Below are positions 4,947-30,653 of a stretch of 62,278 nucleotides of DNA, piece by piece. The notes below the pieces were generated by a model. It searched no databases. It worked only from the letters and a program-made list of their open reading frames with translations, and had not been told where the DNA came from. Source of the stretch: a virus (taxonomy: Duplodnaviria > Caudoviricetes); the IMG/VR virus record IMGVR_UViG_3300049893_000311, positions 1 to 62,278 of that record; one strand, 5' to 3'. Position numbers and translations under genes: made by a program. The stretch's first letter is position 1, and every line of letters starts with the position of its first letter.

Positions 4947-5711
4947 TTAGTAACTCTCGTATGCTACATCATAGCACTTTGAGTCAATCCTGTCAAGTAG
5001 TTCCTGAGCAGGACTTGTTTCTAACCCATCAAGTACCATACTACCATTCCAATCGCGTACTGTCAAGTCGGGTTCATTGAATGGGGTCAGATAGGTGGCA
5101 TCAGTCGGCTCACCGCCCCATTTCTTACGGAAGTAGCCCCTGTGGGCTTCGAACCTCTCAGTAGTCACGTTGGGATTATACTTATCAAACTTTTGGGTCA
5201 TAGATCCCTCATGAATAACATCAATGTCTGTTCTGACGTATCCCTTAACACCGGCAAGGATCATCCTTCGGTGCATATCATTGTCCTCAAAGTAAGCGGG
5301 GTAGAAGTTCTGATCGAACCACCCGGCCTGCTCTGTGACCTGTGGAATATCGATAAAGAAACAGAAAAAGTCTGCACCTTCACGGAGCCCCTCATTCTCA
5401 AACATGTGCTGACGTAGTGGTAGCCTTACCTGATTAGGAGACACGACTCCGGCACCAGTCTCGACAATTGTCTTGTAGAGTTCCTCGATTGCGCCGGGTG
5501 GATACTTAAGATCATCATTAGAAATAAGTGCCCATCTATAACCCAAGTCCCTGGCCCTTCTCATGCCCTCGTTCCAGGCTCCCGACACGCCGCGATTATT
5601 GCGCCATGCATCTATAACGATTGGCCTAATGGCTGTGTCAACAGTTTCAATTGTTTCGGTAAACATATCAAACCGGTTAAGACAGGGGATGATGAATGGA
5701 ATACCGATCAT
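4947..5711 (-). CDS. Glycosyltransferase family 2
   Basis: N.GVSGAWN.G, SNDD (DxD-like), FD.NFYPAYFEDND; ATGA overlap at 5711. Confidence 0.85.
   Translation of the reverse strand: MIGIPFIIPCLNRFDMFTETIETVDTAIRPIVIDAWRNNRGVSGAWNEGMRRARDLGYRWALISNDDLKYPPGAIEELYKTIVETGAGVVSPNQVRLPLRQHMFENEGLREGADFFCFFIDIPQVTEQAGWFDQNFYPAYFEDNDMHRRMILAGVKGYVRTDIDVIHEGSMTQKFDKYNPNVTTERFEAHRGYFRKKWGGEPTDATYLTPFNEPDLTVRDWNGSMVLDGLETSPAQELLDRIDSKCYDVAYESY
4968..5066 (-). promoter_or_regulatory. Tandem promoters (TTGACA-17-TAGTAT 5038-5066; TTGACA-17-TATGAT 4968-4996) for tRNA block
   Basis: Two consensus matches within the 3' end of the glycosyltransferase gene. Confidence 0.7.
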
Positions 5712-6718
5712 ATTGTCAACCACTCCGGGTGGTCTAGTGTCCACTCGACAGTCCTCTGCAGAGATTCCTCTAGGGGCAGTGGGGCTTTCCAGCCTGTTGC
5801 CTCGATGTTATCACAATTAAGTGCATATCTTAGATCGTGTCCTGGCCTAGAACTGTGGAAGTCTACAATCTCATAGTGTAGAGGATTGCCAATGAACTCT
5901 GCAATAAGTGTTGCTAGTTCCAGGTTGTCTACCTCTCGCTCACCGGCGATGTGCAGGCGTAGTGGAGTCTCAGCCTCGCCGTACTTCGGGAATGGCAGGG
6001 AGGCGACGTGCATTAGCCCGTCAGCCTGGTTCCTGGCGTGTAGGTAAAAGCGTGAACCGATACGCCCATCTAGCGAGCCGTGAATCTGTACCAATTCCTC
6101 ATTCAAGATACGCTTAATCACCATAGGAACAAACTTCTCGGGATCCTGCGTCTCACCAATAATGTTCATGGTGTTAGTGATAGCCAGCGGAAGTCCGTAG
6201 GTTCTCCAATAAGAAAACGCAATATCTTCCTGTGCAGCCTTGGAAGCGGAGTACGGATTGCTCGGTAGGTGTTGGTCCTGCCACTCACGGTGGGCGTACC
6301 CATCAGGGGCTGGCCCATAAACCTCATCAGTAGAAATTTGAATGAACTTCTCAATATCAGAGTTACGAGCCCAATCCAAAATGTGTACCATCAAGGATAC
6401 GTTATTGATAATGAACGGTGCCGGTTCCTCGATGCTTCTGTCAACGTGTGACTCACTGGCAACGTTGAACACATAATCGATCTTGCCGAACTCTCTGGCC
6501 GTCAGCGTAGAGATAGGCGAGGTGAAGTCACACCTGATAACCTTGGTGCGGGCATAATCTTCATCAACCTCACGAACGGCGTGACGAATTCTATCCTGCA
6601 GCCCCTTGTGAGTGAAGGTGGTTGGGCATACAATGTCCCAATCAGTATTAACTAGAAAGTGGCGAAGCACATGGCTGCCAACAAAACCGGAAGCACCGGT
6701 CAGCAAAACCCTTTTCAT
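5708..6718 (-). CDS. rmlB: dTDP-glucose 4,6-dehydratase
   Basis: GASGFVG, ASESHVDRSI, STDEVYG, YSASK, RPGHDLRY. Confidence 0.9.
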   Translation of the reverse strand: MKRVLLTGASGFVGSHVLRHFLVNTDWDIVCPTTFTHKGLQDRIRHAVREVDEDYARTKVIRCDFTSPISTLTAREFGKIDYVFNVASESHVDRSIEEPAPFIINNVSLMVHILDWARNSDIEKFIQISTDEVYGPAPDGYAHREWQDQHLPSNPYSASKAAQEDIAFSYWRTYGLPLAITNTMNIIGETQDPEKFVPMVIKRILNEELVQIHGSLDGRIGSRFYLHARNQADGLMHVASLPFPKYGEAETPLRLHIAGEREVDNLELATLIAEFIGNPLHYEIVDFHSSRPGHDLRYALNCDNIEATGWKAPLPLEESLQRTVEWTLDHPEWLTI

Positions 6719-6733
6719 CTGTCTCCTGTCGTC

Positions 6734-7429
6734 CTATCCATTATACCCTATCGGAACAATTGGGGCAACAGCATTTTGCTGACCTAGTTCTATGGTATCC
6801 TGGTGCAGTCCGCTGAATGGGACCGAATATCTATCTGCTATATCACTAATCTTATATCCACTAGCAGTCATATTATCGAGAAAGTGTACCTGATTCCACT
6901 CTACCCCCGAGTAGTTGTGCGCCGGGGCGATAAGCAGTGGAGAACCATGATGCTTAACCATCAACCTTGCTGCCTCGCCACTCAGAAGCCCTACGCTATG
7001 TGCAGCGTGAGGCTGTCCATGAGTATCCAGAATCTTCGGACATACATATGCTACCCCATCAGTCATCCTTTCATAAAATATGTCTATAAAATTATCTACT
7101 GCGGGAACATAATCATCTTCCATCAGAAAATAATCCGTTTCATTACCGGCCCTGACGCTGGCATCTATAGCACTATTCCATCCTCCGTAAGAGAAATCTT
7201 GATTATTTCTTATAATAACAGATAGGTCAGTATAGTATGGTTTATAAGGCTGAACCTCTCTGGCAAAATTTACTATATCATCCTTAGAGTCTGCGTTTAA
7301 GACTAGAACTACCCTGTCTAAGGGAGCGTTTGCGTTACTCAGAAAATCTAGATGATCTCTGACGTGGCACGCAGGTCCAGCGGAGCGTCTCTCCCCCATA
7401 TAGAAAACACTTATATAGGTAACGCTCAA
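6734..7429 (-). CDS. Putative GT-A fold glycosyltransferase
   Basis: R.N...SYGGW and FLMEDDY motifs; context. Confidence 0.5.
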   Translation of the reverse strand: MSVTYISVFYMGERRSAGPACHVRDHLDFLSNANAPLDRVVLVLNADSKDDIVNFAREVQPYKPYYTDLSVIIRNNQDFSYGGWNSAIDASVRAGNETDYFLMEDDYVPAVDNFIDIFYERMTDGVAYVCPKILDTHGQPHAAHSVGLLSGEAARLMVKHHGSPLLIAPAHNYSGVEWNQVHFLDNMTASGYKISDIADRYSVPFSGLHQDTIELGQQNAVAPIVPIGYNG

Positions 7430-8502
7430 CGATATCTCCGAATGCTCTCAATGATAAAATCTGTATCATCATTAGTTAGCCACCAACCACATGGAACATT
7501 TGTTTGGTGTGTAGAGAAGTAGTCCAGTCCTGGCAAGGTTCTAGTATCAAACTCTTTCGTGACACTGTACTTATCATTTCTAGTGTGTACCTGTGCTGCC
7601 TGGATTCCATTGGCATTAAGGTATCTCTCAAAGTCGTCACGATCTATACCGTTATTCACCACAAGTGGGAAGATCCAGTATGAGGTGTCCTCGTAGTAGG
7701 GCGGTACGAACAGCCAATCCAAATCCTTTAAGGCTTCGTACATATGCTTGGCGTTGTTCCTGTGAACGTGAACTCCCATTGCTGCAGATCGCATATTAGC
7801 CAATGCGATAGTTGCGCTGATATCATTCATATTGTACTTATAGCCGATGGTGTTGATATCCTGCATCGACCGGAAACTTTCATTATTATCTCTGTCTAGA
7901 CCATACCAGCGCTTCATACGGGCAAGCCTGTGAGTTTCTTCCGGAGTTACCAGGAGTCCGCCGTCGCCTGCCGTCAGGAACTTAATAGCCTGTAGGCTAT
8001 AAGCAATATAGTCTCCACGAGGCATGTTGTGATCGTATGTGTCCCAGGTGTGGGCGGCATCCTCAATTACTGTGGGTGCTAGCAGTTTGAGAGCATCATA
8101 CTCAGCGAACTGACCAGCCCAATTTACTCCGACAATCGCCTTAGTCTTATCAGTGGCAATTCTTTCAACATCAAATACGCTAATGTTTCCGGTGAATGGG
8201 TAAACATCTGCCCACACAATCTTAGCGCCGCGTCGCATAAGCCCTGCGTTAGTAGCATAGCAGGTCATGGGGGTAGAGATAACCTCGTCACCTGGCTCGA
8301 TTCCGGCCAGGTCGAATGCTAGATCAAGTGCTGACGTAGCAGAGTTGACAGCAACAGGCTCACGAGGAAGATTAAGATACTGATGGGATACGGCCTCTAG
8401 TTCGTCCACCCTCGGGCCCTGCGTGACGAAGCCTGAGGAGAGTGTCTCTGCAACCTTCTCGTTGGCGACCGGTGACATATTTACTTTGAACAGTGGGATC
8501 AT
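7426..8502 (-). CDS. DegT/DnrJ/EryC1/StrS PLP-dependent sugar aminotransferase
   Basis: VNSATSAL, IEDAAH, SLQAIK.L..GDGG, GYKYNMND; leaderless start after TATAAT. Confidence 0.9.
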   Translation of the reverse strand: MIPLFKVNMSPVANEKVAETLSSGFVTQGPRVDELEAVSHQYLNLPREPVAVNSATSALDLAFDLAGIEPGDEVISTPMTCYATNAGLMRRGAKIVWADVYPFTGNISVFDVERIATDKTKAIVGVNWAGQFAEYDALKLLAPTVIEDAAHTWDTYDHNMPRGDYIAYSLQAIKFLTAGDGGLLVTPEETHRLARMKRWYGLDRDNNESFRSMQDINTIGYKYNMNDISATIALANMRSAAMGVHVHRNNAKHMYEALKDLDWLFVPPYYEDTSYWIFPLVVNNGIDRDDFERYLNANGIQAAQVHTRNDKYSVTKEFDTRTLPGLDYFSTHQTNVPCGWWLTNDDTDFIIESIRRYR

Positions 8503-8508
8503 AGTAAC

Positions 8509-8537
8509 ATTATACCAACTCTGTGTCGGTCGGTCCA
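8509..8537 (-). promoter_or_regulatory. Promoter TGGACC-17-TATAAT, leaderless
   Basis: ATG 6 nt after -10. Confidence 0.6.
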
Positions 8538-9238
8538 TCGTCAATTACAACGAAATGATTTGACCTCTGCCCCAATTGATCTGAAAAGACGCCCTTATAC
8601 TGCACAACCATTTCGTTGAATGGGCATGGACCGAAGGCTTCGAACATTTGTGAGTATACCTCAGCGTCTAATGCTGCTGTCTGAGGTGCCGGGAACTTTA
8701 TGCCAGCCTCTTTCCAGTCCTTGATTCGCCAGGATACCTGGCTTGCATCTACCCTGCAGTATGGATCAATTGGCCAAGTGTGGGCGTTTAGAAATGTTCC
8801 ATAGTCGAACGGCATATTATCTATTGACGGATATGTAGTGGGGTCATAGACGCTAACGTGCCCATAACTATACTTGACATCTTGATTGGCAGTGTAATAT
8901 CTGTCCAGACCATTTATATATCCGGGTACCAGGGCGTCGTCGTCACAAAGCATGATTCCTAAATCTGCGTCTGTGTCCTCTATCGCCTTGTTCCAGAAGG
9001 AACCAAATCTGCTCCCTCCCTGAGCCAACTTCTGCTCTACGGAATCGTTAGTGTTATAAAGAGTAACGTCGCCAATTGTCCAGACATATTGATCTATTAC
9101 ATCTCTGAGTGGCTTGGTGGAACCATCATCCACAATCGCCAGGTGGTAGTCTGCATCCCCCTGAGCACAGATAGAGTCTAGCGCCAGTTTGACCATTTCA
9201 GGTCGCTCATAGTATGCCATTAGAATAAGTGTCTTCAA
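8510..9238 (-). CDS. Glycosyltransferase family 2
   Basis: AYYERP, VDDGST, LCDDD motifs. Confidence 0.85.
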   Translation of the reverse strand: MKTLILMAYYERPEMVKLALDSICAQGDADYHLAIVDDGSTKPLRDVIDQYVWTIGDVTLYNTNDSVEQKLAQGGSRFGSFWNKAIEDTDADLGIMLCDDDALVPGYINGLDRYYTANQDVKYSYGHVSVYDPTTYPSIDNMPFDYGTFLNAHTWPIDPYCRVDASQVSWRIKDWKEAGIKFPAPQTAALDAEVYSQMFEAFGPCPFNEMVVQYKGVFSDQLGQRSNHFVVIDDGPTDTELV

Positions 9239-10077
9239 TGATTTATTCGCTCCAATATTTCTGGATTATGCCTATATCTTTCGAGAATGGCCGCTCTTGT
9301 TGGCTCCACCCACTCAAACAAAGACTCGTCCCGGCCTATTGGAATATCATGCGCCAAGGACCACTGAAAGTCTACATCTGGTCTTCTAGAGTCCTGACAC
9401 TCCACCCGATCAAGTACGCCTTTATTCATCTTGACCTCGAACTCCTCTTTAGAAAGAGTAATGTAGTGGTATAGTTTTAACTTGTTCATTGTATAATCGT
9501 CGGGAGAAAATGCTCCATATATTGCATTGTGGTTTTCTGTCACAGAAAAAAGACCTGGCTGGTACAGGAAGTTATGTGGGTGACCGGCGTGTTGGAGGGC
9601 TAGGTGCGGTTGGAAAATAGTCTTTATATGATACATGGGATCCTTAGCAGCATCGAAATAGTTCTCCATCAACAACCCCTCCGGACGATAGATGTGTCCA
9701 GAGGAGTTTATTAGTTGCCATGCTACACTAACTCCCCCATAGTTCTCGTATTCTGACAGCATCTCTGGCAGACTTTTCCCTGTCGGACTAATCAAGCGTT
9801 CATCAATAGCATGATAGTGTAGCCACCTGGTCTTGAATGCTTGCTCCTGAATGCAGTAATCCATCACCCAACTGTTCTTGCTTATGTTTAATCCATCAGG
9901 ATAAGTTCGTAACTCTACCAGGTCTCCGTATGGCTCTAAAATTTCCCTGGTCCCATCCGTGGAGCCATTGTCGTAGAAGATAAAATGGTCGAACCCCTGC
10001 ATGAGATGAAACTCTAGATATTCTGGAAGATATCTCCCTTCATTTTTTATCCAATAAATTCCAGTTAGGTTATACAT
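9235..10077 (-). CDS. Glycosyltransferase family 92-like
   Basis: KNE.RYL.E.LEFH...GFDHF.FYDNGSTD; IDE; HY.T.S.EEF..K. Confidence 0.8.
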   Translation of the reverse strand: MYNLTGIYWIKNEGRYLPEYLEFHLMQGFDHFIFYDNGSTDGTREILEPYGDLVELRTYPDGLNISKNSWVMDYCIQEQAFKTRWLHYHAIDERLISPTGKSLPEMLSEYENYGGVSVAWQLINSSGHIYRPEGLLMENYFDAAKDPMYHIKTIFQPHLALQHAGHPHNFLYQPGLFSVTENHNAIYGAFSPDDYTMNKLKLYHYITLSKEEFEVKMNKGVLDRVECQDSRRPDVDFQWSLAHDIPIGRDESLFEWVEPTRAAILERYRHNPEILERINH

Positions 10078-10513
10078 TTATATACTCCAATGGGTAGTCT
10101 GTACAGATTCCTAAGAGGTTGTCGGTCGGCTCCCACAATTCTGGTAATACAGAGATGCTGTTTTCCAGCGGTGGTGCCGATGGGTGGGTCCATACCACCC
10201 CGTTACTTACCAGGGTGTACGAATCTGTGATATGGAAAAAATACCTCAAATCCTTAAGGAACGAGTTAGAAACCTTTTCTAGCGCAGTGCCGTTCTTGCA
10301 GTGGATCCAAAGGTTGTCTCTGTAGTGGTGCAGCCATTCTGCAGACACCTCGTACTGCAACTCATCGTGTCCTAAATAGAAGCAGCCATTAACCCACCAC
10401 AGGTCTACCTCTACATCAAGCCCTAGGTGAATCACGCTCTGTATCTGCTTGGGTGAATTCTCGGAATTTGGGTCGGGCCCGTACAGGTTGCCCCGGTGAG
10501 AAATAATTACCAC
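10070..10513 (-). CDS. GDPD/PLC-like phosphodiesterase-fold protein
   Basis: ISHRGN, DVEVD, LGHD, WIHCKN, GICTDY. Confidence 0.75.
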   Translation of the reverse strand: MVIISHRGNLYGPDPNSENSPKQIQSVIHLGLDVEVDLWWVNGCFYLGHDELQYEVSAEWLHHYRDNLWIHCKNGTALEKVSNSFLKDLRYFFHITDSYTLVSNGVVWTHPSAPPLENSISVLPELWEPTDNLLGICTDYPLEYINV

Positions 10514-11880
10514 CGATCCTCCTTTAAAAATTCTTCCAGATCTTCTGGTGTGCCGAGACCATGCATATCATCAACATCGAACGTCTTAAACTTTAAACCG
10601 CCCTGTATTCCCTCATTAAATGCCGGACAGACATAAAACTCATTATTAGTTCTAATGTTTTTATCAATCATCTGCTTGGCAGAGGCAACGTAGTCGCTAC
10701 CGCGCTTCCAGTAATAAATACCGACAGTCGCATTATGCGAAATAGGATTTTTTTCGGCTACTCTTTCAACGTATCCATCCTCCCCAACCTTAGCGAACGA
10801 CCACTTGGGGTGAGTGGACTTGAATGTCACTATTCCCCCGTCTGTAGCCGACTCCTGCATAAAGTAGAAGAAGTCTGAGGGCGACCACTCTACATACTGG
10901 TCCGAGTTTGCCAGTAGAAGCGGGCTCTCGTTGTCTATAAACTCTGACGCTAACAGAGTGGTAACTGCTGCGCCCTCCGTCAGACCATCAGTTTCCACGA
11001 TTTTGACCTGACCAGGCGTGATAAGTTGTAGCATTGTGTCAAGATTGTACTTCTGCCGATGTTCTGATCTAACAATGTAAATAAATGTCGCGTCCTGTAT
11101 TCCAAGATTTTCAACAACCACCTGAATCATTGGTTTTCCCCTGACAGAAATCAGAGGCTTAGGAAAAGTATATCCGGCACTCTCAAATCTAGATCCGGCT
11201 CCGGCCATAGGAATAACTACGTTCAGGCTTGACTGTGACCATGAAGAATTCATTTTACCATTATACCCTCCGATTCTAGATTCCACAAACTCTTTTGTCA
11301 CCTCTAGCGGGTCGGAGATTCTTAATGTGTTTGCTCCGGAGAGCGTGGCAGCCCTTAGTCCGACCGGAGAGTCTTCTAGGATCAATGTTTCTTCTGGAAG
11401 AACCCCATAAAGAGACATAACCTTCCAGTACATTTCCGGGTGTGGCTTAGAATTTTTCACATCTTCGTTAGAGACAATGATATCAAAATATTCTTTTATA
11501 CCCAATCTCTCTAGCACGAGGGCCGTAGTGGATCTGATGGAGTTGGAGCAACAGGCAATCTTGACCCCTCTTGCTGTCAACGACCTCATAAGATCTACGA
11601 GAATGTGATTTACGCCAACAGACCTATTTATCACCTCGGCTGTAAACTCCTGCTTTCTTTTCCAGATAGAATCATGGGCTCCTCGTGGGAGTCCACGCTT
11701 TTCTGACAGCATGTTTAACTTCTCGGTAGTCTTTAATCCGTCAAAGACGGACAGGTGCTCTTTCTCGGAGATAACATACTGTGCCCCCTGCTCTTTAAGG
11801 GCTTCGTTCAGGGCGTGAAAATGAATATCTTTAGTAGATACAAGAACTCCATCAAGGTCGAACGCTATAAGTTTTATCAT
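10507..11880 (-). CDS. HAD hydrolase / sugar nucleotidyltransferase fusion
   Basis: N-term FDLDG...SNS...KP.P...EDS; C-term PMAGAGSRF..AGY..PKPL, NSDQ, GLGTPEDL. Confidence 0.9.
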   Translation of the reverse strand: MIKLIAFDLDGVLVSTKDIHFHALNEALKEQGAQYVISEKEHLSVFDGLKTTEKLNMLSEKRGLPRGAHDSIWKRKQEFTAEVINRSVGVNHILVDLMRSLTARGVKIACCSNSIRSTTALVLERLGIKEYFDIIVSNEDVKNSKPHPEMYWKVMSLYGVLPEETLILEDSPVGLRAATLSGANTLRISDPLEVTKEFVESRIGGYNGKMNSSWSQSSLNVVIPMAGAGSRFESAGYTFPKPLISVRGKPMIQVVVENLGIQDATFIYIVRSEHRQKYNLDTMLQLITPGQVKIVETDGLTEGAAVTTLLASEFIDNESPLLLANSDQYVEWSPSDFFYFMQESATDGGIVTFKSTHPKWSFAKVGEDGYVERVAEKNPISHNATVGIYYWKRGSDYVASAKQMIDKNIRTNNEFYVCPAFNEGIQGGLKFKTFDVDDMHGLGTPEDLEEFLKEDRW

Positions 11881-11890
11881 CTATACAACC

Positions 11891-12343
11891 TTATACCGTA
11901 CGCCTAACCATAGAGACTACGCCATTATGCTCAGCAGTCTCGACAAATCCGAGTGATCGATAGAGATTGATTGCCTTATTATTAGTAGAAAGAACGTCCA
12001 ATTCTGGTACGAACTGGTCATCATTAGTCAGATCAATTAGAGTCTGGAACAGTTTTTTCCCATGACCCTGCCCCTGATACTCTTCCAGAATTGCGCCGGT
12101 TAAGAGAGCAGCCGAAGCATCCTGCCTGTTAATAATACCATAGCCAATCGCCTTGCCTTGACTAAAATAAAGAAACAGTCTCAACCTTTCATGGTCGAGA
12201 CTGCTATACCACTCTATCTGCTCACTCTCTGTAATCATTTTGGTGTTATTAGTCATAAATTGACGAACACTATTACGAATCAGGCGGGCCGCTTCAAGTT
12301 CTCGCTCTAGGTTTGGCCTATCAGGAGTAATTTCTACCAGCAT
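11891..12343 (-). CDS. GNAT N-acetyltransferase (PseH-like)
   Basis: RN..RQFM...I...EQ..W; QGQGHG; N.KAINLY.SLGF. Confidence 0.85.
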   Translation of the reverse strand: MLVEITPDRPNLERELEAARLIRNSVRQFMTNNTKMITESEQIEWYSSLDHERLRLFLYFSQGKAIGYGIINRQDASAALLTGAILEEYQGQGHGKKLFQTLIDLTNDDQFVPELDVLSTNNKAINLYRSLGFVETAEHNGVVSMVRRTV

Positions 12344-12344
12344 A

Positions 12345-12626
12345 TTAGAATGTTTCTGTGTTTACTGTTACCGTGTGTCCATCGTCATGATTGATGGTAT
12401 ATGTGTATGGGTCCGCCTTGGTAATGGTGCCGTGGGAGACTATAGGATTCTGCCAGTACGGAGTATAATCACCGGCACCATAAGTCGTCTCAACAACTGT
12501 TTCCTTGACTAAATTACCCTTACCATCATATTCTCTGGTAGTGGTAATTGTCTTAGTAGTACGCGGGTAGTTGTACTGTCCGTAATCGACTACATTCGTT
12601 GGCGGGCCAATCGGATTAATCATCAT
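12345..12626 (-). CDS. Hypothetical protein (start uncertain)
   Basis: ORF directly downstream of tRNA-Ala. Confidence 0.6.
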   Translation of the reverse strand: MMINPIGPPTNVVDYGQYNYPRTTKTITTTREYDGKGNLVKETVVETTYGAGDYTPYWQNPIVSHGTITKADPYTYTINHDDGHTVTVNTETF

Positions 12627-12627
12627 G

Positions 12628-12700
12628 TGGAGCATTAGGGAGTCGAACCCTATCCTATTCCTTGCAAAAGAATCGTGCCATCCCTTAACACCTATGCCCC
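12628..12700 (-). tRNA. tRNA-Ala(TGC)
   Basis: G3:U70 pair; ATTCT-TTTGCAA-GGAAT. Confidence 0.95.
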
Positions 12701-12705
12701 TCTAT

Positions 12706-12776
12706 ACGAGGTGTTCTTTTTTGAACTACCGGAGTCTCGACTTCCAGGCAATGAATTTCACATTGCGTTTCCTCGT
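12706..12776 (-). ncRNA. Circularly permuted tRNA-like module (YrlA-type topology)
   Basis: ACGAGG-AAAC-[GCAATG-TGAAATT-CATTGC]-[CTGGA..TCCGG]-TA-[GTTC-AAAAAA-GAAC]-A-CCTCGT. Confidence 0.65.
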
Positions 12777-12849
12777 GGCTTCGGGTCAGAGGGTCGAACT
12801 CCGATTCGTAGATTCAAAGTCTACTGTCCTGCCATTAGACGAACCCGAA
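12776..12849 (-). tRNA. tRNA-Gln(TTG)
   Basis: TTCGGGT/ACCCGAA-G-CCA; GTAGA-CTTTGAA-TCTAC. Confidence 0.95.
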
Positions 12850-13266
12850 TTAAATTAATTCTTTGCAATTACCCTTCCATGTTCTGATGCGGTGGCAGTT
12901 GCTACACACAACATCACACTTAGAAATTTCCTTTTCGATCTTTTCTACGCTTCCGAGGTTAATCATCTTTGCAATTGTGAACTCTTTATCCGCCGGGTCT
13001 CGGTGATCAAAGTCCATAACATAGAATGGATATTTGACTCCACAATCCATACATGGAACGTCTCTAGCCACTCTAGTAACTTTTCTTAGAGCATCTTGAC
13101 TCGCCTTGTTTCTAGTATACAGTCTTTCTCGCTCCTTGTCAACCGAGTTGTAGTATTCCTTATACCACATCTTTTGACACTCACGACACTTAGACTGATA
13201 CTTGTCCCTTTTCCGATTGAACTGGTCTACCGGCTTTGAAACACCACACGAATTGCAAGTTTTCAT
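12850..13266 (-). CDS. HNH endonuclease with N-terminal Zn finger (leaderless start MKTCNSCG)
   Basis: CxxC pairs, MDFDH...CDVVCSNCHRIR. Confidence 0.85.
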   Translation of the reverse strand: MKTCNSCGVSKPVDQFNRKRDKYQSKCRECQKMWYKEYYNSVDKERERLYTRNKASQDALRKVTRVARDVPCMDCGVKYPFYVMDFDHRDPADKEFTIAKMINLGSVEKIEKEISKCDVVCSNCHRIRTWKGNCKELI

Positions 13267-13272
13267 ACCATG

Positions 13273-13301
13273 ATTATACATGGATTCGAACCCTATGTCA
13301 A
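13273..13301 (-). promoter_or_regulatory. Perfect consensus promoter TTGACA-17-TATAAT, leaderless
   Basis: ATG 6 nt after -10. Confidence 0.85.
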
Positions 13302-13311
13302 GTTCGAGGGG

Positions 13312-13385
13312 CTCGGCGGGGAAGGATCGAACTTCCGACTTCAAGATTCAGAGTCTTGCTGCATATGCCAACAATGCGCCGCCGA
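13312..13385 (-). tRNA. tRNA-Gln(CTG)
   Basis: TCGGCGG/CCGCCGA-G; CAAGA-CTCTGAA-TCTTG. Confidence 0.9.
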
Positions 13386-13397
13386 ATAACTATTATT

Positions 13398-13426
13398 AGT
13401 TTAGCACACTATATAAAGCGTGTCAA
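13398..13426 (-). promoter_or_regulatory. Promoter TTGACA-17-TAAACT
   Basis: Consensus match upstream of tRNA-Gln(CTG). Confidence 0.75.
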
Positions 13427-13429
13427 CTT

Positions 13430-13504
13430 TGGTGCATCCGGACGGTGCTGCCCCGCCGACATTCGCGTTTAGAGTGCGACGTTCTACTGTTGAACTACGG
13501 ATGC
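13430..13504 (-). tRNA. Amber-anticodon tRNA(CTA) #1, full cloverleaf
   Basis: GCATCCG/CGGATGC-A-CCA; TCGCA-CTCTAAA-CGCGA; T-loop GGCAGCA. Confidence 0.85.
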
Positions 13505-13505
13505 T

Positions 13506-13657
13506 TGGTGGGCATATGCGTTACTAGCGCAACCTAGCAGATCAAGGAAACGGACTACCTATAGGATATCCTTCCGCAGCCTGGGCCTTGGATATAGGCG
13601 TTTATCGTGTGCTGTCACTACTAGAGGAAGGCGTTACTAGCAATACCTTCGCTGCCC
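13506..13657 (-). ncRNA. 152-nt ACCA-ended RNA with two CU-AGU-AA loops
   Basis: GGGCA/TGCCC-ACCA; GAAGGT..G-CTAGTAA-C-GCCTTC; CTAGTAG/CTGCTAG; TGCG-CTAGTAA-CGCA; fills the space between two tRNAs. Confidence 0.75.
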
Positions 13658-13658
13658 G

Positions 13659-13725
13659 AGCCCCGGAGGGGAATTGAACCCCAAGTCTGGCTTTTAGAGA
13701 GCCGTCTTGCGCCTGCGTCCGAGGC
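13659..13725 (-). tRNA. Amber-anticodon tRNA(CTA) #2, 67 nt with reduced D-arm
   Basis: GCCTCGG/CCGGGGC-T; GGCT-CTCTAAA-AGCC; GGGG-TTCAATT-CCCC. Confidence 0.7.
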
Positions 13726-13728
13726 AGA

Positions 13729-13756
13729 TGAGCAGTTTTAGTCATGCTCAGGACTA
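13729..13756 (-). other. Compact H-type pseudoknot upstream of tRNA(CTA) #2
   Basis: TAGTC/GACTA stem; loop TGAGCA pairs TGCTCA. Confidence 0.65.
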
Positions 13757-13790
13757 GGGATAAAAGATTTTATCCTCCACCACTTAGTTG

Positions 13791-13820
13791 TTACTAAGTC
13801 TATGTCTAGGTCTATGTCAC
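13791..13820 (-). CDS. Minigene GTG-ACA-TAG-ACC-TAG-ACA-TAG-ACT-TAG-TAA (M-T-X-T-X-T-X-T-X if amber is read)
   Basis: SD AGGGGGTG 7 nt upstream; repeat varies only at the Thr wobble position; ends in TAA. Confidence 0.65.
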
Positions 13821-13861
13821 GACTCACCACCCCCTATAAGAGATTGGCGTTTCGCCTTAAC

Positions 13862-14416
13862 CTATGGGTCTAGAAAATCCCCATCTAGAACAGTTTTCAT
13901 TGCCGCCTCGCGTGGAATCATACCCAAGTAACACATCCAACAGTGCCACGGACCTGAGTGTGGACATTCCTTAGGACGCAACTGGTAGACTGCCGGAGCA
14001 GTTGCAGGCTGCGGTCCAGATCCACAGTCAGGACATTCCTCACCAATAAGCAGGATGCGTCCAGACATACAGGTATCGCAAACATCTAGACGCCCAGCAC
14101 GCTTTTCAGCGCGGCGCTTAAACGTGCTCTGACGGCGCTGTGGAAGCGTGCCGTCCTTGTAAGGAACCATATCACCCTTAAGTTGGTTACACTTGCGATG
14201 CATCAACTTTAGATTATCAAGATCCCACGTTCCGCCATTAGAAAGCGGATTCCAGTGGTCTAGGGTAACGGCCCACCTGTTGTTCTCATCTTCGTAATCG
14301 ATAGAAAAGTCTAGTGGCTCCCCACACTCCGGGTGCATACAAAAATCGCCGTCCCTCTCACGAAGGAATGCGATTCGCTCTTCTCTCGATGGAGCGCGAG
14401 TCTCCACGGTTATCAC
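13862..14416 (-). CDS. HNH endonuclease with C-terminal Cys/His clusters (start 14416 or 14407; in-frame ATG-ACT-TAG at 14440)
   Basis: RDG..C...CG, TLDH..PLS.GG...DNL...H..CN..K. Confidence 0.85.
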   Translation of the reverse strand: MITVETRAPSREERIAFLRERDGDFCMHPECGEPLDFSIDYEDENNRWAVTLDHWNPLSNGGTWDLDNLKLMHRKCNQLKGDMVPYKDGTLPQRRQSTFKRRAEKRAGRLDVCDTCMSGRILLIGEECPDCGSGPQPATAPAVYQLRPKECPHSGPWHCWMCYLGMIPREAAMKTVLDGDFLDP

Positions 14417-14444
14417 CTTTTCGCTAGTGTTCTAAGTCATGGGT

Positions 14445-14651
14445 CTATTGTAGCACATCACCGGTCAGTAGGTCAAGTTGGCCCACAATTGGGGCGTAGG
14501 CACAGTCATCGTCAACGTCTGGACGATTATAGTCACTGACCTCACCACAGTATTTACACGTCAAATAATCTACCTCGTCTGGATCTAAGTTGTCCAGATC
14601 GTCCAGGTCCATGCCTGGAAAGATCGCCCTATCGTGCCATGCGTGCTTCAC
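14445..14651 (-). CDS. Hypothetical acidic protein with CxxC
   Basis: GTGA overlap with upstream stop. Confidence 0.6.
   Translation of the reverse strand: MKHAWHDRAIFPGMDLDDLDNLDPDEVDYLTCKYCGEVSDYNRPDVDDDCAYAPIVGQLDLLTGDVLQ
14447..14476 (-). promoter_or_regulatory. Promoter TTGACC-18-TACAAT; ATG-ACT-TAG at predicted +1
   Basis: TGn extended -10; ATG 6 nt downstream like other leaderless genes here. Confidence 0.7.
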
Positions 14652-14881
14652 CAGAAATCATACCCTTCGAATACTTCCCCCATCGCTGATACGGGGAAAC
14701 CTGATTTTGTGTAGTTGCACCAGCCAGAGTGCTTGCGCTTCTCAAAGCAGTACAGTGTCCTGCCAATCCACTCTATCTTGTCTGCACACCGGCCATGCCA
14801 GTCCTGTAGGTGAGCCATGTACTCCTGCTCTGTGAACCTTTCGTGGTCGATATTGCAGTTCTGATTGAACCGCTCTATCAT
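14648..14881 (-). CDS. Hypothetical protein (Cys/His-rich)
   Basis: AGGAGG SD. Confidence 0.7.
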   Translation of the reverse strand: MIERFNQNCNIDHERFTEQEYMAHLQDWHGRCADKIEWIGRTLYCFEKRKHSGWCNYTKSGFPVSAMGEVFEGYDFW

Positions 14882-14889
14882 CGTACCTC

Positions 14890-16677
14890 CTAGATCAGTC
14901 TCATGCGATCAAGGTAATCCTCGATCTCAGGGGGCATCCTCTTAGGTGCCTGAATCACACCCTCATCATACTCCCTCTTGTCCAAGTTGTCAATAGTAGT
15001 TAGATCACGAGGTTCGTAGATCTCAATGACCGGGTTAAGATCCTTCGGGGTCAAAGAAATTGCATTGAATATAGCACCACAGGTGGCGTCAGCCAAGTCC
15101 TTACTGCCTTGCCTTGGGTGGTCAACCTTGTCCTTATTGATCCTTAGTTTCAGAAGTTCCCTGATGAGGATGGGAAGGTGCGGTCCCTTTACCCTGTCCT
15201 CATAAACGGCCAGTGCCATATCCTCGTAATGCTTTTTAGCAACCGATAGAGTCTCAGACTTCAAACCATATTCACGGAGTTGCTGCATCATATCGTGGCT
15301 GTTCCAGCGGTCGAAGGTGACCATTCGGATATCGAAGCCGAGCCTCTTAAGGTTCAGAATGTAGTCCTTAACCTCTGTGAAATCAACCGATTTGTCTGAC
15401 GAAGGTGTCCAGTAACGTACCGCGTCAACAATAACATACGGAGCAATGATATTTGTCTGCCCCATGATCCTCTGATTCTTCCAGTGGTCAACGTGGGCCA
15501 TAGCAACAGCACAACGGTCATGCTTCTGAGCCAGGTCAACGTGAAGGTAGTAGGCCTTGTCATGCTCCGGCTTAAACCAGTCAGCGAACGATCCATGCTC
15601 TGTAATGGCAATGTTCATTTCTCGGAAAGCCTTCTCTACCTTTTCCTTAGACTTGAAGAATGCGTCGATGGCCTCGGGAGGCATGCACGCAAATCGAGAC
15701 AGAGCATCTACCGAGTCAGTGAGGAATGCGTTTTTCAGGTCGTCCAGGTTGATCAGTGGGTTAACCTCCCACGTTGGGCGCTTCATTGCGAACACCTTTG
15801 GGTACTTGTAGGAGATAATTCTATCCTCTTCCCACTCGATTGTGAACTCGTTATCTGGTAGCCCGCCCGGAAGTGACTCATCAATTTGGAAGGTGTAAGT
15901 TTGGATGACCGTTTCCTTGTCTGCAATAACTTCGTTGTACCTTTGCTGGATGAAGTCCTCTTTATATCGGGGGAAGGATAGCAGCAGAACCTTGCCGAAT
16001 TGCGGGAATCGTGAGTCTACGGAGCCCCTATACATCTTGTAGATGGCGTCAGCGGTCTTAGCGTTCTCGTTTCCAGACATATTCTCGATTGCGAAACCTG
16101 AAATCTCGTCAAGGATGACCAGGATAACGTTGTATCCCTCCCAGGACTCTCGCTCAGAGTGGCCGGAGTGTACGGTCACGTTCTTGATAAATGATACCGC
16201 GTCGGCCTTCTGTGTGTATTTACCTGCGAACCAGGGTGACTTTTCAATCCTGTTCTTGAAGCCCTTGAAGAAAACGTTGCGAGCCTGCTGGCTGTTAATA
16301 GCAATGTTCAGAATGTCAATGGAGTCGCCAGGTGGCTTTCCATAGTACCGCGCCGGGTCTTTTAAGCAGAGCAACAGATAAACGATATAAGCACACGCAA
16401 TTGTCGATGTATAGTCTTTCCCCGAACCCTTCCCCAACTGCATGATGATCTCGGTATATGTCTGCTTCCACCGCCTGTTTCCTTCCTCCGGGCCATAAAG
16501 GTTGATCAGCGTGTCATACTTATAAATCTGTGATGACGCCTCAATGATCTTATACTGATTCTCAGACAGCGGTGGAAGCCCCAAATACTTGTCAGAGGTA
16601 ACGAATTCCTTGACCGGAACCGGCCTTTCATCGAACTCGTCACCACTAAGAATATCTAGAAAGTCAGTCAGACTCAA
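14890..16677 (-). CDS. terL: Terminase large subunit
   Basis: Walker A GKGSGKD, Walker B VILDE, nuclease HVDLA, FDRWNS, KVDHP..GSKDLADA. Confidence 0.9.
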   Translation of the reverse strand: MSLTDFLDILSGDEFDERPVPVKEFVTSDKYLGLPPLSENQYKIIEASSQIYKYDTLINLYGPEEGNRRWKQTYTEIIMQLGKGSGKDYTSTIACAYIVYLLLCLKDPARYYGKPPGDSIDILNIAINSQQARNVFFKGFKNRIEKSPWFAGKYTQKADAVSFIKNVTVHSGHSERESWEGYNVILVILDEISGFAIENMSGNENAKTADAIYKMYRGSVDSRFPQFGKVLLLSFPRYKEDFIQQRYNEVIADKETVIQTYTFQIDESLPGGLPDNEFTIEWEEDRIISYKYPKVFAMKRPTWEVNPLINLDDLKNAFLTDSVDALSRFACMPPEAIDAFFKSKEKVEKAFREMNIAITEHGSFADWFKPEHDKAYYLHVDLAQKHDRCAVAMAHVDHWKNQRIMGQTNIIAPYVIVDAVRYWTPSSDKSVDFTEVKDYILNLKRLGFDIRMVTFDRWNSHDMMQQLREYGLKSETLSVAKKHYEDMALAVYEDRVKGPHLPILIRELLKLRINKDKVDHPRQGSKDLADATCGAIFNAISLTPKDLNPVIEIYEPRDLTTIDNLDKREYDEGVIQAPKRMPPEIEDYLDRMRLI

Positions 16678-29684: not shown

Positions 29685-29979
29685 GATTGTGTCCTCCTGC
29701 AAATCCGAATACCATCTCTTGATCGTGCTTCCCAGCGAAAGCAGCAGTCTCTTCCTCATCACTATACACCAACTCGACCCCATGTGTCAAGAGTTGGTTT
29801 CCAATCTCTGCCCAGGCATTCGCAATTTCTACCATCTGAGCAGACTCTTCACGCTGCATGGCAAACTTTTGAGCATACGCAAGCGCGTCCATCGCTGACA
29901 CATAGGCCAGAGGAGCGTTGATATTTACTACTATTGGTTCTTCGTGGTGAATATGCTTCTTTTTCTTTTTCTTTGCCAT
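29638..29979 (-). CDS. Hypothetical protein with poly-Lys N-terminus
   Basis: TAATG coupling. Confidence 0.65.
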   Translation of the reverse strand: MAKKKKKKHIHHEEPIVVNINAPLAYVSAMDALAYAQKFAMQREESAQMVEIANAWAEIGNQLLTHGVELVYSDEEETAAFAGKHDQEMVFGFAGGHNHGKEEAEPSTDSPEG

Positions 29980-30494
29980 TACCAATCTTCCGCTAGGTAT
30001 ACAGGGACAAACTCTCCATCCTCTGTCCGGGCGTACAACTGCATATCATGCTTCACAGCAGCGCGAACATCAGACTTGCCAAGAACATTCTTGGGCTTGA
30101 TCAATCCATCCTTACGGGGGCGTCCTAGGTGCTTGTTTGCCATGACCTCCTGAATCTGGAAGATATTTTCTTCCGAGAAGATCCTACGCACCGGCCTACC
30201 GTCTACCTGAGAGTATAGCATACCGTCTGATTCTATCTCACCCGCCATTAGGTAGTTGTGAATCTGGCGGGTGGTACGGTTGACGATCTTGGACACCTGA
30301 CCGATGGTGAAGCCGCGTGAAGCGTGCCGCCTTACATCTGACCATGCAAACATTCGCATGGTACTATCCTCTAGACATAAGGCGACCGCCTCATCACGAG
30401 CATAGATAACTCGAACAAGTTTATATAGTTTTCCGTCGATGAAGAAATACTTCCATTTCTTCTTCAACTTGACTACGCTTGGTCGCTTAGCCAA
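29979..30494 (-). CDS. MerR-like HTH DNA-binding protein
   Basis: FTIGQVSKIVNRTTRQI..Y...G.I...R.FSEE.I. Confidence 0.75.
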   Translation of the reverse strand: MAKRPSVVKLKKKWKYFFIDGKLYKLVRVIYARDEAVALCLEDSTMRMFAWSDVRRHASRGFTIGQVSKIVNRTTRQIHNYLMAGEIESDGMLYSQVDGRPVRRIFSEENIFQIQEVMANKHLGRPRKDGLIKPKNVLGKSDVRAAVKHDMQLYARTEDGEFVPVYLAEDW

Positions 30495-30653
30495 CTATGC
30501 CTTGCTCCTCTCATAGAGCCATCGTCCAAACGGGTTGTCGTATTTACTGACGTACACTCTCTTGCCACACATGATGCAAAATACATCAATTTTGTTAGCC
30601 TCAGAGAACATGGCGTCAACATACATACGACCACCACATTTCTTGCAGTGCAT
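30495..30653 (-). CDS. Small Zn-ribbon protein (52 aa)
   Basis: Not in ORF track; MHCKKCGGRMYVD...FCIMCGKR. Confidence 0.8.
   Translation of the reverse strand: MHCKKCGGRMYVDAMFSEANKIDVFCIMCGKRVYVSKYDNPFGRWLYERSKA

Follow-up and report, generated by a model that had tools for sequence, protein, structure and literature searches.

A conserved phage cassette predicted to decode the amber codon, with a Thr/amber mini-ORF ahead of non-canonical CUA tRNAs

In several well-known systems, a short open reading frame (ORF) senses its own decoding capacity, as in the leader-peptide attenuators of the trp, his, and thr operons and in the autoregulation of release factor 2 (RF2) through an in-frame stop. 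Phage suppressor tRNAs are known mainly from gut phages in which TAG is already recoded, and it is an open question how suppressors are tolerated and kept in check by phages that have yet to recode. Parts of one study report that suppressor tRNAs also occur in standard-code relatives of recoded phages and that non-canonical phage tRNAs elude the usual finders (10.1101/2021.08.26.457843). tRNAs of the 8/4 type have also been reported in phages, and natural nonsense-suppressor or regulatory roles are proposed in parts of the same paper (Mukai et al., PMC5389517). Here we describe a locus in IMG/VR record IMGVR_UViG_3300049893_000311, a stretch of 62,278 bases with an estimated completeness of about 50% that is called the window below. 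Its minus strand, which carries almost all window genes, holds what its sequence indicates is a conserved phage cassette for decoding the amber codon UAG, made up of a two-codon leader, an HNH endonuclease gene, a mini-ORF in which Thr codons alternate with TAG, and tRNAs with a CUA anticodon. The arrangement is new, but each part is of a known kind: suppressor tRNAs occur in phages, and minigenes, leader peptides, and tRNAs of non-canonical shape are also known. The initial annotation of this locus had called the combination undescribed, and literature searches, with supplementary tRNA lists outside their scope, likewise turned up no report of a mini-ORF of sense and amber codons linked to CUA tRNAs in a phage.

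Co-occurrence of the mini-ORF and the CUA tRNAs

Mini-ORF and CUA tRNAs go together in the loci compared. In all six distinct loci (the window, L083, L095, L096, L099, and L003, which is the same contig as L098), an ORF of 7-10 codons with three to four tandem UAGs is followed 51-76 nt further 3′ by a CUA tRNA. In a seventh locus, L097, the mini-ORF and the CUA tRNAs are jointly absent, and the leader and the HNH gene are retained. A scan of 118 loci (927,554 bases) for hairpins and with ARAGORN -mt gave 172 candidate hairpins and seven CUA tRNA calls, all seven in loci with the module. The link between a UAG message and a CUA adaptor, which the initial annotation had proposed from the window, is thereby seen across relatives. 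The window features that it had listed as a promoter at either end, ATG-ACT-TAG at the predicted +1, an HNH gene, a minigene led by a Shine-Dalgarno (SD) sequence (13820-13791), and a reduced and a full tRNA(CUA) were all recovered, as follows:

14447..14476, minus strand: sigma-70-type promoter P1, TTGACC-18-TACAAT, TG-extended (promoter scan)
14432..14440, minus strand: ATG ACT TAG, a leaderless mini-ORF of two codons that shares the frame of the HNH start (sequence reading)
13862..14416, minus strand: HNH endonuclease gene with stop TAG; likely start GTG 14407, where relatives have ATG (Pfam, PHROG)
13824..13834, minus strand: SD-like GGGGGTGGTGA (GGAGGTGGTGA in relatives) 5′ of the mini-ORF (anti-SD complementarity by inspection)
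13791..13820, minus strand: mini-ORF GTG-(ACA TAG)(ACC TAG)(ACA TAG)(ACT TAG)-TAA (sequence reading)
13738..13830, minus strand: alternative-frame ORF (frame B) of 30 aa, MVSRDIDLDIDLV..., overlapping the mini-ORF (ORF list)
13726..13790, minus strand: spacer with predicted hairpins; the tRNA leader, which forms its 3′ part, is able to base-pair with the SD region (folding)
13660..13725, minus strand: reduced tRNA(CUA), 66 nt, with a 2-bp D stem, a canonical T loop, and a possible 8/4 acceptor/T arrangement (ARAGORN -mt, covariation)
13506..13659, minus strand: UAG-rich element of 154 nt ending in ACCA, the 152-nt RNA of the initial annotation; not a tRNA (folding, homology, strain comparison)
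13433..13504, minus strand: tRNA(CUA) #2, 72 nt, with CCA at 13432-13430 (Rfam, ARAGORN -mt)
13398..13426, minus strand: promoter P2, TTGACA-17-TAAACT, of the next unit (tRNA-Gln CUG, 13386-13309) (promoter scan, ARAGORN)

The relatives came from a terminase search of IMG/VR (80 loci), an HNH search of IMG/VR (L083), and an HNH search of metagenome contigs (L095, L096, L097, L098, L099, and L100). They are listed below with the window, the HNH percentages being amino-acid identities to the window HNH protein:

Window: leader ATG ACT TAG; four repeats and TAA; then the reduced tRNA, the 154-nt element, and tRNA(CUA) #2
L083: HNH 88%; ATG ACT TAG; three repeats and TAA TAA; a 75-nt tRNA(CUA) (ARAGORN), then a tRNA(CUA) #2 identical to that of the window
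L095: HNH 77%; ATG ACC TAG; three repeats and TAA TAA; a hairpin of ~50 nt, then the identical tRNA(CUA) #2
L096: HNH 76%; ATG ACT TAG; three repeats and TAA; a variant tRNA(CUA) #2, cut by the contig end
L003 = L098: HNH 64-66%; ATG ACA TAG; three repeats and TAA; reduced tRNA
L099: HNH 72%, partial; leader cut off; an extra ORF between HNH and the mini-ORF; ACA, ACC, ACT, and AAC, each followed by TAG, then TAA TAA; reduced tRNA
L097: HNH 74%; ATG ACA TAG; no mini-ORF; no CUA tRNA
L100: HNH 43%; no leader, no mini-ORF, no CUA tRNA

The BE-cluster phages Francob and Phredrick have neither a leader mini-ORF nor an SD-led mini-ORF around their HNH gene, and the CUA tRNAs are missing as well. 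In IMG/VR, a search with a 17-mer and the reduced-tRNA pattern returned known contigs only, plus chance matches in coding DNA, and a tRNA #2 pattern gave one chance match. GTDB genomes gave no match for the mini-ORF block and five chance matches for the reduced-tRNA pattern. On the unrelated IMG/VR contig L089 (2001-2125), a chance 17-mer is followed by an array of ~10-nt GAC-containing repeats between two ORFs.

The CUA tRNAs and the 154-nt element

Compensatory pairing and model scores indicate that both CUA tRNAs are real. The reduced tRNAs of the window, L003, and L099 align with 19 pairs and 98.2% of cells paired, compared with 28-58% when the alignments are slid, and five of the 19 pairs are changed on both sides. 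In the strain of run X5, one anticodon-stem pair is changed from G-C to C-G. The loops CUCUAAA, a 7-nt anticodon loop with U33, and UUCAAUU are invariant. A covariance model of the three reduced tRNAs, run over 883 kb, scored only those three above 90 bits, and the next match (26.9 bits) is an ordinary tRNA-Lys(CUU) of phage Phredrick. tRNA #2 scores 47 bits against the Rfam tRNA family (RF00005), for which the gathering score is 29. Its sequence is identical in the window, L083, and L095, and in L096 four of nine D- and anticodon-stem pairs are compensated, with the A31-C39 mismatch kept. The loop CUCUAAA is thus common to three unrelated scaffolds, namely the reduced tRNA, tRNA #2, and the 75-nt tRNA of L083. 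Three such scaffolds with one loop behind the same mini-ORF argue that amber reading is a selected property of the CUA tRNAs, and we infer that they are charged and read UAG. As to their origin, there was no informative blastn match in the phage collection and no close tRNA among the 222 ARAGORN tRNAs of the loci.

Genes of this kind escape standard tRNA finders. In bacterial mode, ARAGORN missed the two CUA tRNAs of the window, tRNA #2 even with lowered thresholds, and the reduced tRNA had no Rfam match at E ≤ 10; ARAGORN -mt detects both and labels CUA 'Pyl'. In tRNA #2, both loops are non-consensus, the D loop being AACAGUA, without GG, and the T loop GGCAGCA, which is not UUCRANY. In the reduced tRNA, an eighth acceptor pair is present in all three sequences (AU, UG, and UA), and an alternative fifth T-stem pair in two of the three. 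The 8/4 arrangement is tentative because an ATG in the T arm of L003 and L099 starts a frame in which two 3′-side substitutions are synonymous, and the varying 3′ base of the eighth pair is also a synonymous site of the overlapping frame in both.

Two further observations concern the tRNA boundaries. The ATG of the next ORF comes 1-3 nt after the CUA tRNA in L083 (3844-3846), L095 (~981-985), L003 (5704-5707), and L099 (~748-751), where tRNA 3′ processing would leave a leaderless or nearly leaderless mRNA, a tRNA punctuation as in mitochondria. The spacer of ~50 nt between the mini-ORF and tRNA #2 (L095 ~860-909, L096 ~2235-2284) forms a hairpin whose outer stem changes from GCCA/UGGC to GCCC/GGGC in a compensatory manner; its inner stem-loop, CGG-UUUGAAU-CCG, resembles a T arm and may be a tRNA remnant.

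Between the two tRNAs of the window, the initial annotation had seen a 152-nt RNA with an ACCA end and two AGU loops, a Thr (AGU) adaptor that would work with the CUA tRNAs on the minigenes as a matched Thr/amber set. The ACCA end and two CUAGUAA motifs are indeed present, but by inspection only one motif has a 4-bp stem and the other has 2 bp, and the 154-nt element does not fold significantly better than its shuffles (z -0.27; +0.69 together with the reduced tRNA). It gave no cloverleaf and no match with ARAGORN in either mode or with Rfam, and no CCA-type end before tRNA #2 is kept in L083 or L095. A counterpart is missing from all five related contigs that keep the mini-ORF and CUA tRNAs, the kind of comparison that the initial annotation had itself named as able to overturn its proposal, and also from the phage collection and from every locus searched with blastn-short. 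Furthermore, an A34 Thr anticodon is not normal in bacterial tRNAs. Even with its invariance in the strains of runs X2 and X3 and its place beside the reduced tRNA on a metatranscriptome contig (both described below), a Thr adaptor is extremely improbable. tmRNA, Y RNA, T-box, and ribozyme candidates were also rejected for the element and the spacers, with no Rfam match at E ≤ 10 in 12500-15000. Across the window, Rfam gave no such non-tRNA family at gathering score, with none in L003 or L083 at E ≤ 1, and ARAGORN found no tmRNA. The element is rich in TAG and CTAG, and the counting intervals starting at 13451 and 13501 reach eight CTAG, the window maximum.

Contigs from other samples place the element within a larger unit. 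Those of runs X2 (13505-14483) and X3 (13505-14550) have 20 and 13 differences, respectively. Every one of them falls in 13886-14453, and within HNH the distances between them are mostly multiples of three. There are no differences in the 381 nt of 13505-13885, and the 154-nt element is identical. The match breaks exactly at 13505 in X2, X3, and X5, one base before tRNA #2, and at 14483 in X2 and X5; X3 record 8 continues beyond 14483 to 14550, the end of the compared stretch. X2 also has the window's own junction at lower depth. From these breaks, the promoter, HNH, mini-ORF, reduced tRNA, and 154-nt element therefore form one 979-nt cassette (13505-14483), and tRNA #2 is, by the same evidence, a separate cassette. 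The metatranscriptome contig of X7 (238 nt) spans 13510-13739, with the reduced tRNA and the 154-nt element; it stems from a single study with assembled contigs, possible DNA carry-over, and no cover of HNH, and supports no claim on transcript ends or HNH expression. The small-share runs X6-X24 were left out of the comparison except X7 (share 0.15), and the compared runs holding the cassette are labelled freshwater or freshwater-sediment metagenomes. Taken with the homology searches, the strain comparison makes the 154-nt element a cassette part that is specific to its lineage and invariant between strains. It is not junk, and it is not a Thr adaptor.

Putative translation of the mini-ORFs and a possible suppression sensor

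Relatives have their own -35 and -10 hexamers at the position of P1, and the distance from the -10 hexamer to the ATG is always 6 nt. The leader ATG accordingly sits at the predicted +1 (14440-14432 in the window), 6 nt past the -10 hexamer, in all six loci that span the region (the window, L083, L095, L096, L097, and L003) despite differing spacer sequences, and the leader is kept as ATG-ACT/ACC/ACA-TAG in each. In these same six loci, the leader AUG-ACN-UAG is in the frame of the HNH start with no intervening stop, which is weak evidence, as there are no indels among these loci. The same geometry of -10 hexamer, 6 nt, and ATG precedes real window genes (promoters 32845, 13301, and 563, with ORFs of 131, 138, and 123 codons), which makes leaderless translation plausible in this phage; it appears to use leaderless mRNAs routinely. 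The gene after promoter 13301 is a second HNH gene (12853-13266) located between two tRNA-Gln genes. RTGACNTAG by itself is not enriched in the window, with 3 found and 4.0 expected, and the weight therefore rests on conservation in the relatives. The HNH ORF matches Pfam HNH (E 5e-7) and phrog_9645 across its full length (E 4e-57), and its read-through frame ends at a TGA overlapping the mini-ORF GTG in the five loci where both adjoin. Another promoter-like site, TTGACA-17-TAGTAT, followed after 8 nt by ATG GGT TAG (Met-Gly-amber), occurs at ~5066-5020 on the minus strand, within the end of ORF 4947-5744 and just 5′ of tRNA-Gly(UCC) (4945-4871); it may be a chance occurrence.

The SD-led mini-ORF is as regular. 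The distance from GGAGGTGGTGA to the GTG is 7-9 nt across loci, and the repeats, three to four in the five related contigs, are followed by TAA or TAA TAA. The TAG of the repeats is invariant, the third base of ACN is A, C, or T, and copy number shifts by whole 6-nt units, with a single non-ACN unit among the loci (AAC TAG in L099). In all six loci, the non-amber TAA, often doubled, directly follows the repeats in frame with a strong SD, as the initial annotation would lead one to expect. Window TAG density peaks at 13451-13900, with 18 against a mean of 5.2 (sd 2.6), and by a hand estimate a run of three ACNTAG units should occur ~1e-4 times in DNA as long as the window. At position +4, A follows one of nine gene-terminal TAGs and all internal mini-ORF TAGs, a difference that is not significant (P about 0.25, by hand).

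It is possible that the hexamer TAGACN is not translated and instead serves as an RNA or DNA motif, a site for protein binding or processing, or a scar or target of HNH-mediated exchange. The motif TGACNTAGA stands on both sides of the HNH gene, the 979-nt block acts as one mosaic cassette in a tRNA region with several free-standing HNH genes, the copy number (3 or 4) is microsatellite-like, and TAG and CTAG are frequent in the 154-nt element too. However, an untranslated motif would not account for optimal spacing after a strong SD and start or for the in-frame TAA that closes the repeats in all six loci. In L099, the repeat stays with the tRNA, set apart from HNH by another ORF; the leader copy begins exactly at the predicted +1 as ATG in six of six loci; and a 6-bp period would be ill-suited to one face of the DNA helix. 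We consider this explanation unlikely.

The block could also encode a small frame-B protein (GTG GTG AGT CGT GAC ATA GAC CTA = MVSRDIDLD(I/L)...) or a functional (Thr-X)n peptide. Frame B is open in all six loci, and its variation is conservative (Ile or Leu; Asp to Glu in L099). A search of IMG/VR with RTG(ACNTAG)3 found 21 loci, of which two are the module and the rest read as Asp-Leu/Val-type coding sequence, the most common reading of similar hexamer repeats there, or as AT-rich repeats. Yet the frame-B start codon lies inside the SD, at a spacing of 0-3 nt, its C-termini are unrelated (16-56 aa), the L003 frame crosses the tRNA, and frame B cannot apply to the leaderless copy at 14440. 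For a (Thr-X)n peptide, both the length (7 or 9 residues) and the last sense codon (Asn in L099) vary. A peptide product of either kind is very unlikely.

As read without suppression, both mini-ORFs match the layout of lambda bar minigenes in sequence, with an SD or leaderless start, one sense codon, and a stop. One could therefore imagine a bar-like switch, in which fMet-Thr-stop minigenes drop off dipeptidyl-tRNA(Thr), are re-initiated again and again, load peptidyl-tRNA hydrolase (Pth), and tie up host tRNA(Thr) and release factor 1 (RF1). The CUA tRNAs would then make the SD-led minigene a harmless ORF of 8-10 codons that ends in UAA, and the level of cassette RNA would time or limit the effect. 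All relatives keep the minigene layout behind a strong SD or as a leaderless start, Thr is the sole sense codon of both mini-ORFs, and the related BE-cluster phages are rich in genes for tRNA and RNA repair (tmRNA, RNA ligase, polynucleotide kinase, Ro-like protein). In addition, shortening minigenes from 8 to 2 codons gives more drop-off and recycling and less termination, according to parts of a study of such minigenes (PMC2490762). On the other side, the leader ACN varies (ACT, ACC, or ACA), so that no single rare tRNA is targeted, and such a switch does not account for the retention of repeats past the first UAG in the unsuppressed state. Pfam detected neither Pth nor RF among the window ORFs, which cover about half of the genome. 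In Pth-limited E. coli, bar minigenes are known to be toxic, and they are not known to benefit a phage. Such a switch is quite unlikely.

We infer that ribosomes start at the GUG of the SD-led mini-ORF and at the leaderless AUG and that the UAGs are read through. Of the three roles suggested in the initial annotation, the evidence favours a sensor over a trap or a peptide. The mini-ORF may work like a leader peptide and sense how suppressor and RF1 are balanced, with effects on how the suppressor precursor folds or is processed and, via the leader, on HNH; we regard this as a serious possibility, somewhat short of probable. With no charged CUA tRNA, RF1 would release ribosomes at codon 3, and the mini-ORF would be a two-codon minigene. 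With charged CUA tRNA, ribosomes would go 6-8 codons further, to the UAA, and three to four serial UAGs would make the response steep. The ribosome run would enter an RNA domain closed by pairing of the SD and start region with the tRNA leader and the 5′ acceptor strand, such that amber decoding could feed back on the folding or processing of the suppressor precursor. At the other end of the cassette, read-through of the leaderless AUG-ACN-UAG, in frame with HNH, would extend and boost the HNH product.

RNA folding is in part consistent with such a domain. The hairpins that the initial annotation had placed after the minigene are predicted, but weakly (z -1.8). In the minimum-free-energy structures of the three reduced-tRNA loci, the SD and start region pairs with the tRNA leader and the 5′ acceptor strand, closing the mini-ORF domain. 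The SD-leader helix changes from GGUGAG:CUCAUC in the window and L099 to GGUGGUC:GACCAUC in L003, and duplexes of equal or greater stability arise in a fraction of the shuffles that is 0.17 for the window, 0.06 for L099, and 0.007 for L003, a modest support. In L083, the SD pairs with a CCUCC-type stretch right after the mini-ORF.

Several points weigh against a sensor. Translation of either mini-ORF and read-through of UAG are putative. Neither CUA tRNA is canonical (a 2-bp D stem in one, non-consensus D and T loops in the other), and their use by EF-Tu and the ribosome is likewise putative. The block shared among loci is conserved at the nucleotide level, where selection on codons is inseparable from that on an RNA or DNA motif, and frame B (MVSRDIDLD...) is open in all relatives, the AAC TAG of L099 being a conservative Asp-to-Glu change there. 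The T-arm ATG of L003 and L099 opens a frame into the next ORF, with the two 3′-side substitutions synonymous. That 13505-13885 is identical between strains may mean that the cassette was transferred recently and not that it is under constraint. The leader AUG-ACA-UAG is present in L097 without any CUA tRNA nearby, the spacer hairpins vary among relatives, and the SD-leader duplex is weak or absent in L083, L095, and L096. No consistent regulated protein gene is found 3′ of the cassette among the loci. Finally, no terminator-like site lies between the mini-ORF and the tRNAs, the sole one in 12000-15500 being at 12205-12174, and classical transcription attenuation is therefore unsupported.

Genomic setting and comparison with known systems

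The large terminase of the window shares 62-64% identity with those of Streptomyces BE-cluster phages (Stanwilliamsviridae), and the gene order 3′ of it is as in these phages, with small ORFs, an HNH gene, and a tRNA array opening with tRNA-Gln(CUG). ARAGORN in bacterial mode called 13 tRNAs in the window, none with a CUA anticodon. Pfam assigned window ORFs to replication, tail, and sugar-modification functions and to several HNH genes, and free-standing HNH genes were placed within the tRNA region by Pfam and PHROG. In the Pfam scan of 59 window ORFs, no tRNA synthetase, release factor, Pth, or other translation factor was found, nor any PylRS or pyl biosynthesis family. Genome-wide recoding of TAG was rejected: the 61 minus-strand ORFs end in TAA (28), TGA (24), or TAG (9, among them the terminase and HNH genes), and coding density under code 11 is 96%. 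An in-frame TAG candidate at 29979-30653 (TAG at 30497-30495) was also rejected, being two genes in different frames in BE-cluster phages.

Other features of this region stand apart from the cassette. A 231-aa ORF of unassigned function (6734-7429, minus strand) ends in TAG, and the start of an NAD-dependent epimerase (5708-6718) follows five codons later in the same frame, so that amber read-through would join the two; the plus-strand CTA count is likewise high at 6551-6900. A sugar-modification cluster (4947-12343) inside the tRNA region encodes three family-2 glycosyltransferases, a DegT-type aminotransferase, an epimerase/dehydratase, a HAD-nucleotidyltransferase fusion, and a GNAT protein. 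In Streptomyces phage Phredrick (69500-100000), the tRNAs are interspersed with a short tmRNA (268 nt, tag ANSNFALAA), an RNA ligase, a polynucleotide kinase, and a Ro-like RNA-binding protein, and no CUA tRNA is annotated in this stretch.

From a biological perspective, a phage clade with the standard code keeps three unrelated non-canonical CUA tRNA shapes, always behind an amber-codon message. If the mini-ORF is a sensor, it could represent an early, self-regulated step toward TAG recoding in a standard-code, actinophage-like lineage. It would then be a new kind of translational feedback, would offer a natural and compact reporter of UAG read-through, and would supply suppressor tRNA scaffolds that are unusual and may be orthogonal. 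That it is the first natural leader-peptide sensor of stop-codon suppression, in the form of a mobile HNH-led cassette with a 3-4-fold cooperative response that gates tRNA maturation and HNH, is a tentative proposal that we think somewhat unlikely to hold in full.

The cassette resembles each of the systems considered here only in part. With the recoded phages (crAss-like and Lak), it shares a phage CUA tRNA and a host presumed to use the standard code; it differs in that TAG is not recoded, the lineage is actinophage-like, and the samples are from freshwater. An alternating sense/amber mini-ORF is not mentioned in the portion of the recoded-phage study at hand (10.1101/2021.08.26.457843). The reduced tRNA recalls the (8/4) and (9/3) allo-tRNAs in its possible acceptor branch of 8 + 4 bp. 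Allo-tRNAs have a Ser-type long arm, whereas the reduced tRNA has no long variable arm, a 2-bp D stem, and a CUA anticodon, and a 7/5 arrangement also fits two of its three sequences. Truncated metazoan mitochondrial tRNAs and tRNA(Pyl) share reduced or non-consensus D and T elements with the CUA tRNAs, which ARAGORN -mt detects. However, these are tRNAs of a bacterial phage with no pyl genes or tRNA synthetase found in the window, and the stem and loop sizes of tRNA(Pyl) do not fit them.

The mini-ORFs are closer to two other systems. As in the lambda bar minigenes, an SD, a start, one sense codon, and a stop follow one another as long as UAG acts as a stop. In the cassette, this stop is UAG without exception; it is repeated with a sense codon 3-4 times in an ORF closed by UAA and tied to CUA tRNAs, and one of the two mini-ORFs is leaderless. 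As in leader-peptide attenuators and the RF2 gene, a short ORF enriched in the sensed codon lies 5′ of genes for that capacity. In contrast to the attenuators, a stop codon would be what is sensed, a tRNA is what is made, and no terminator/antiterminator pair was found; the output would instead pass through RNA folding or processing or through ribosome occupancy.

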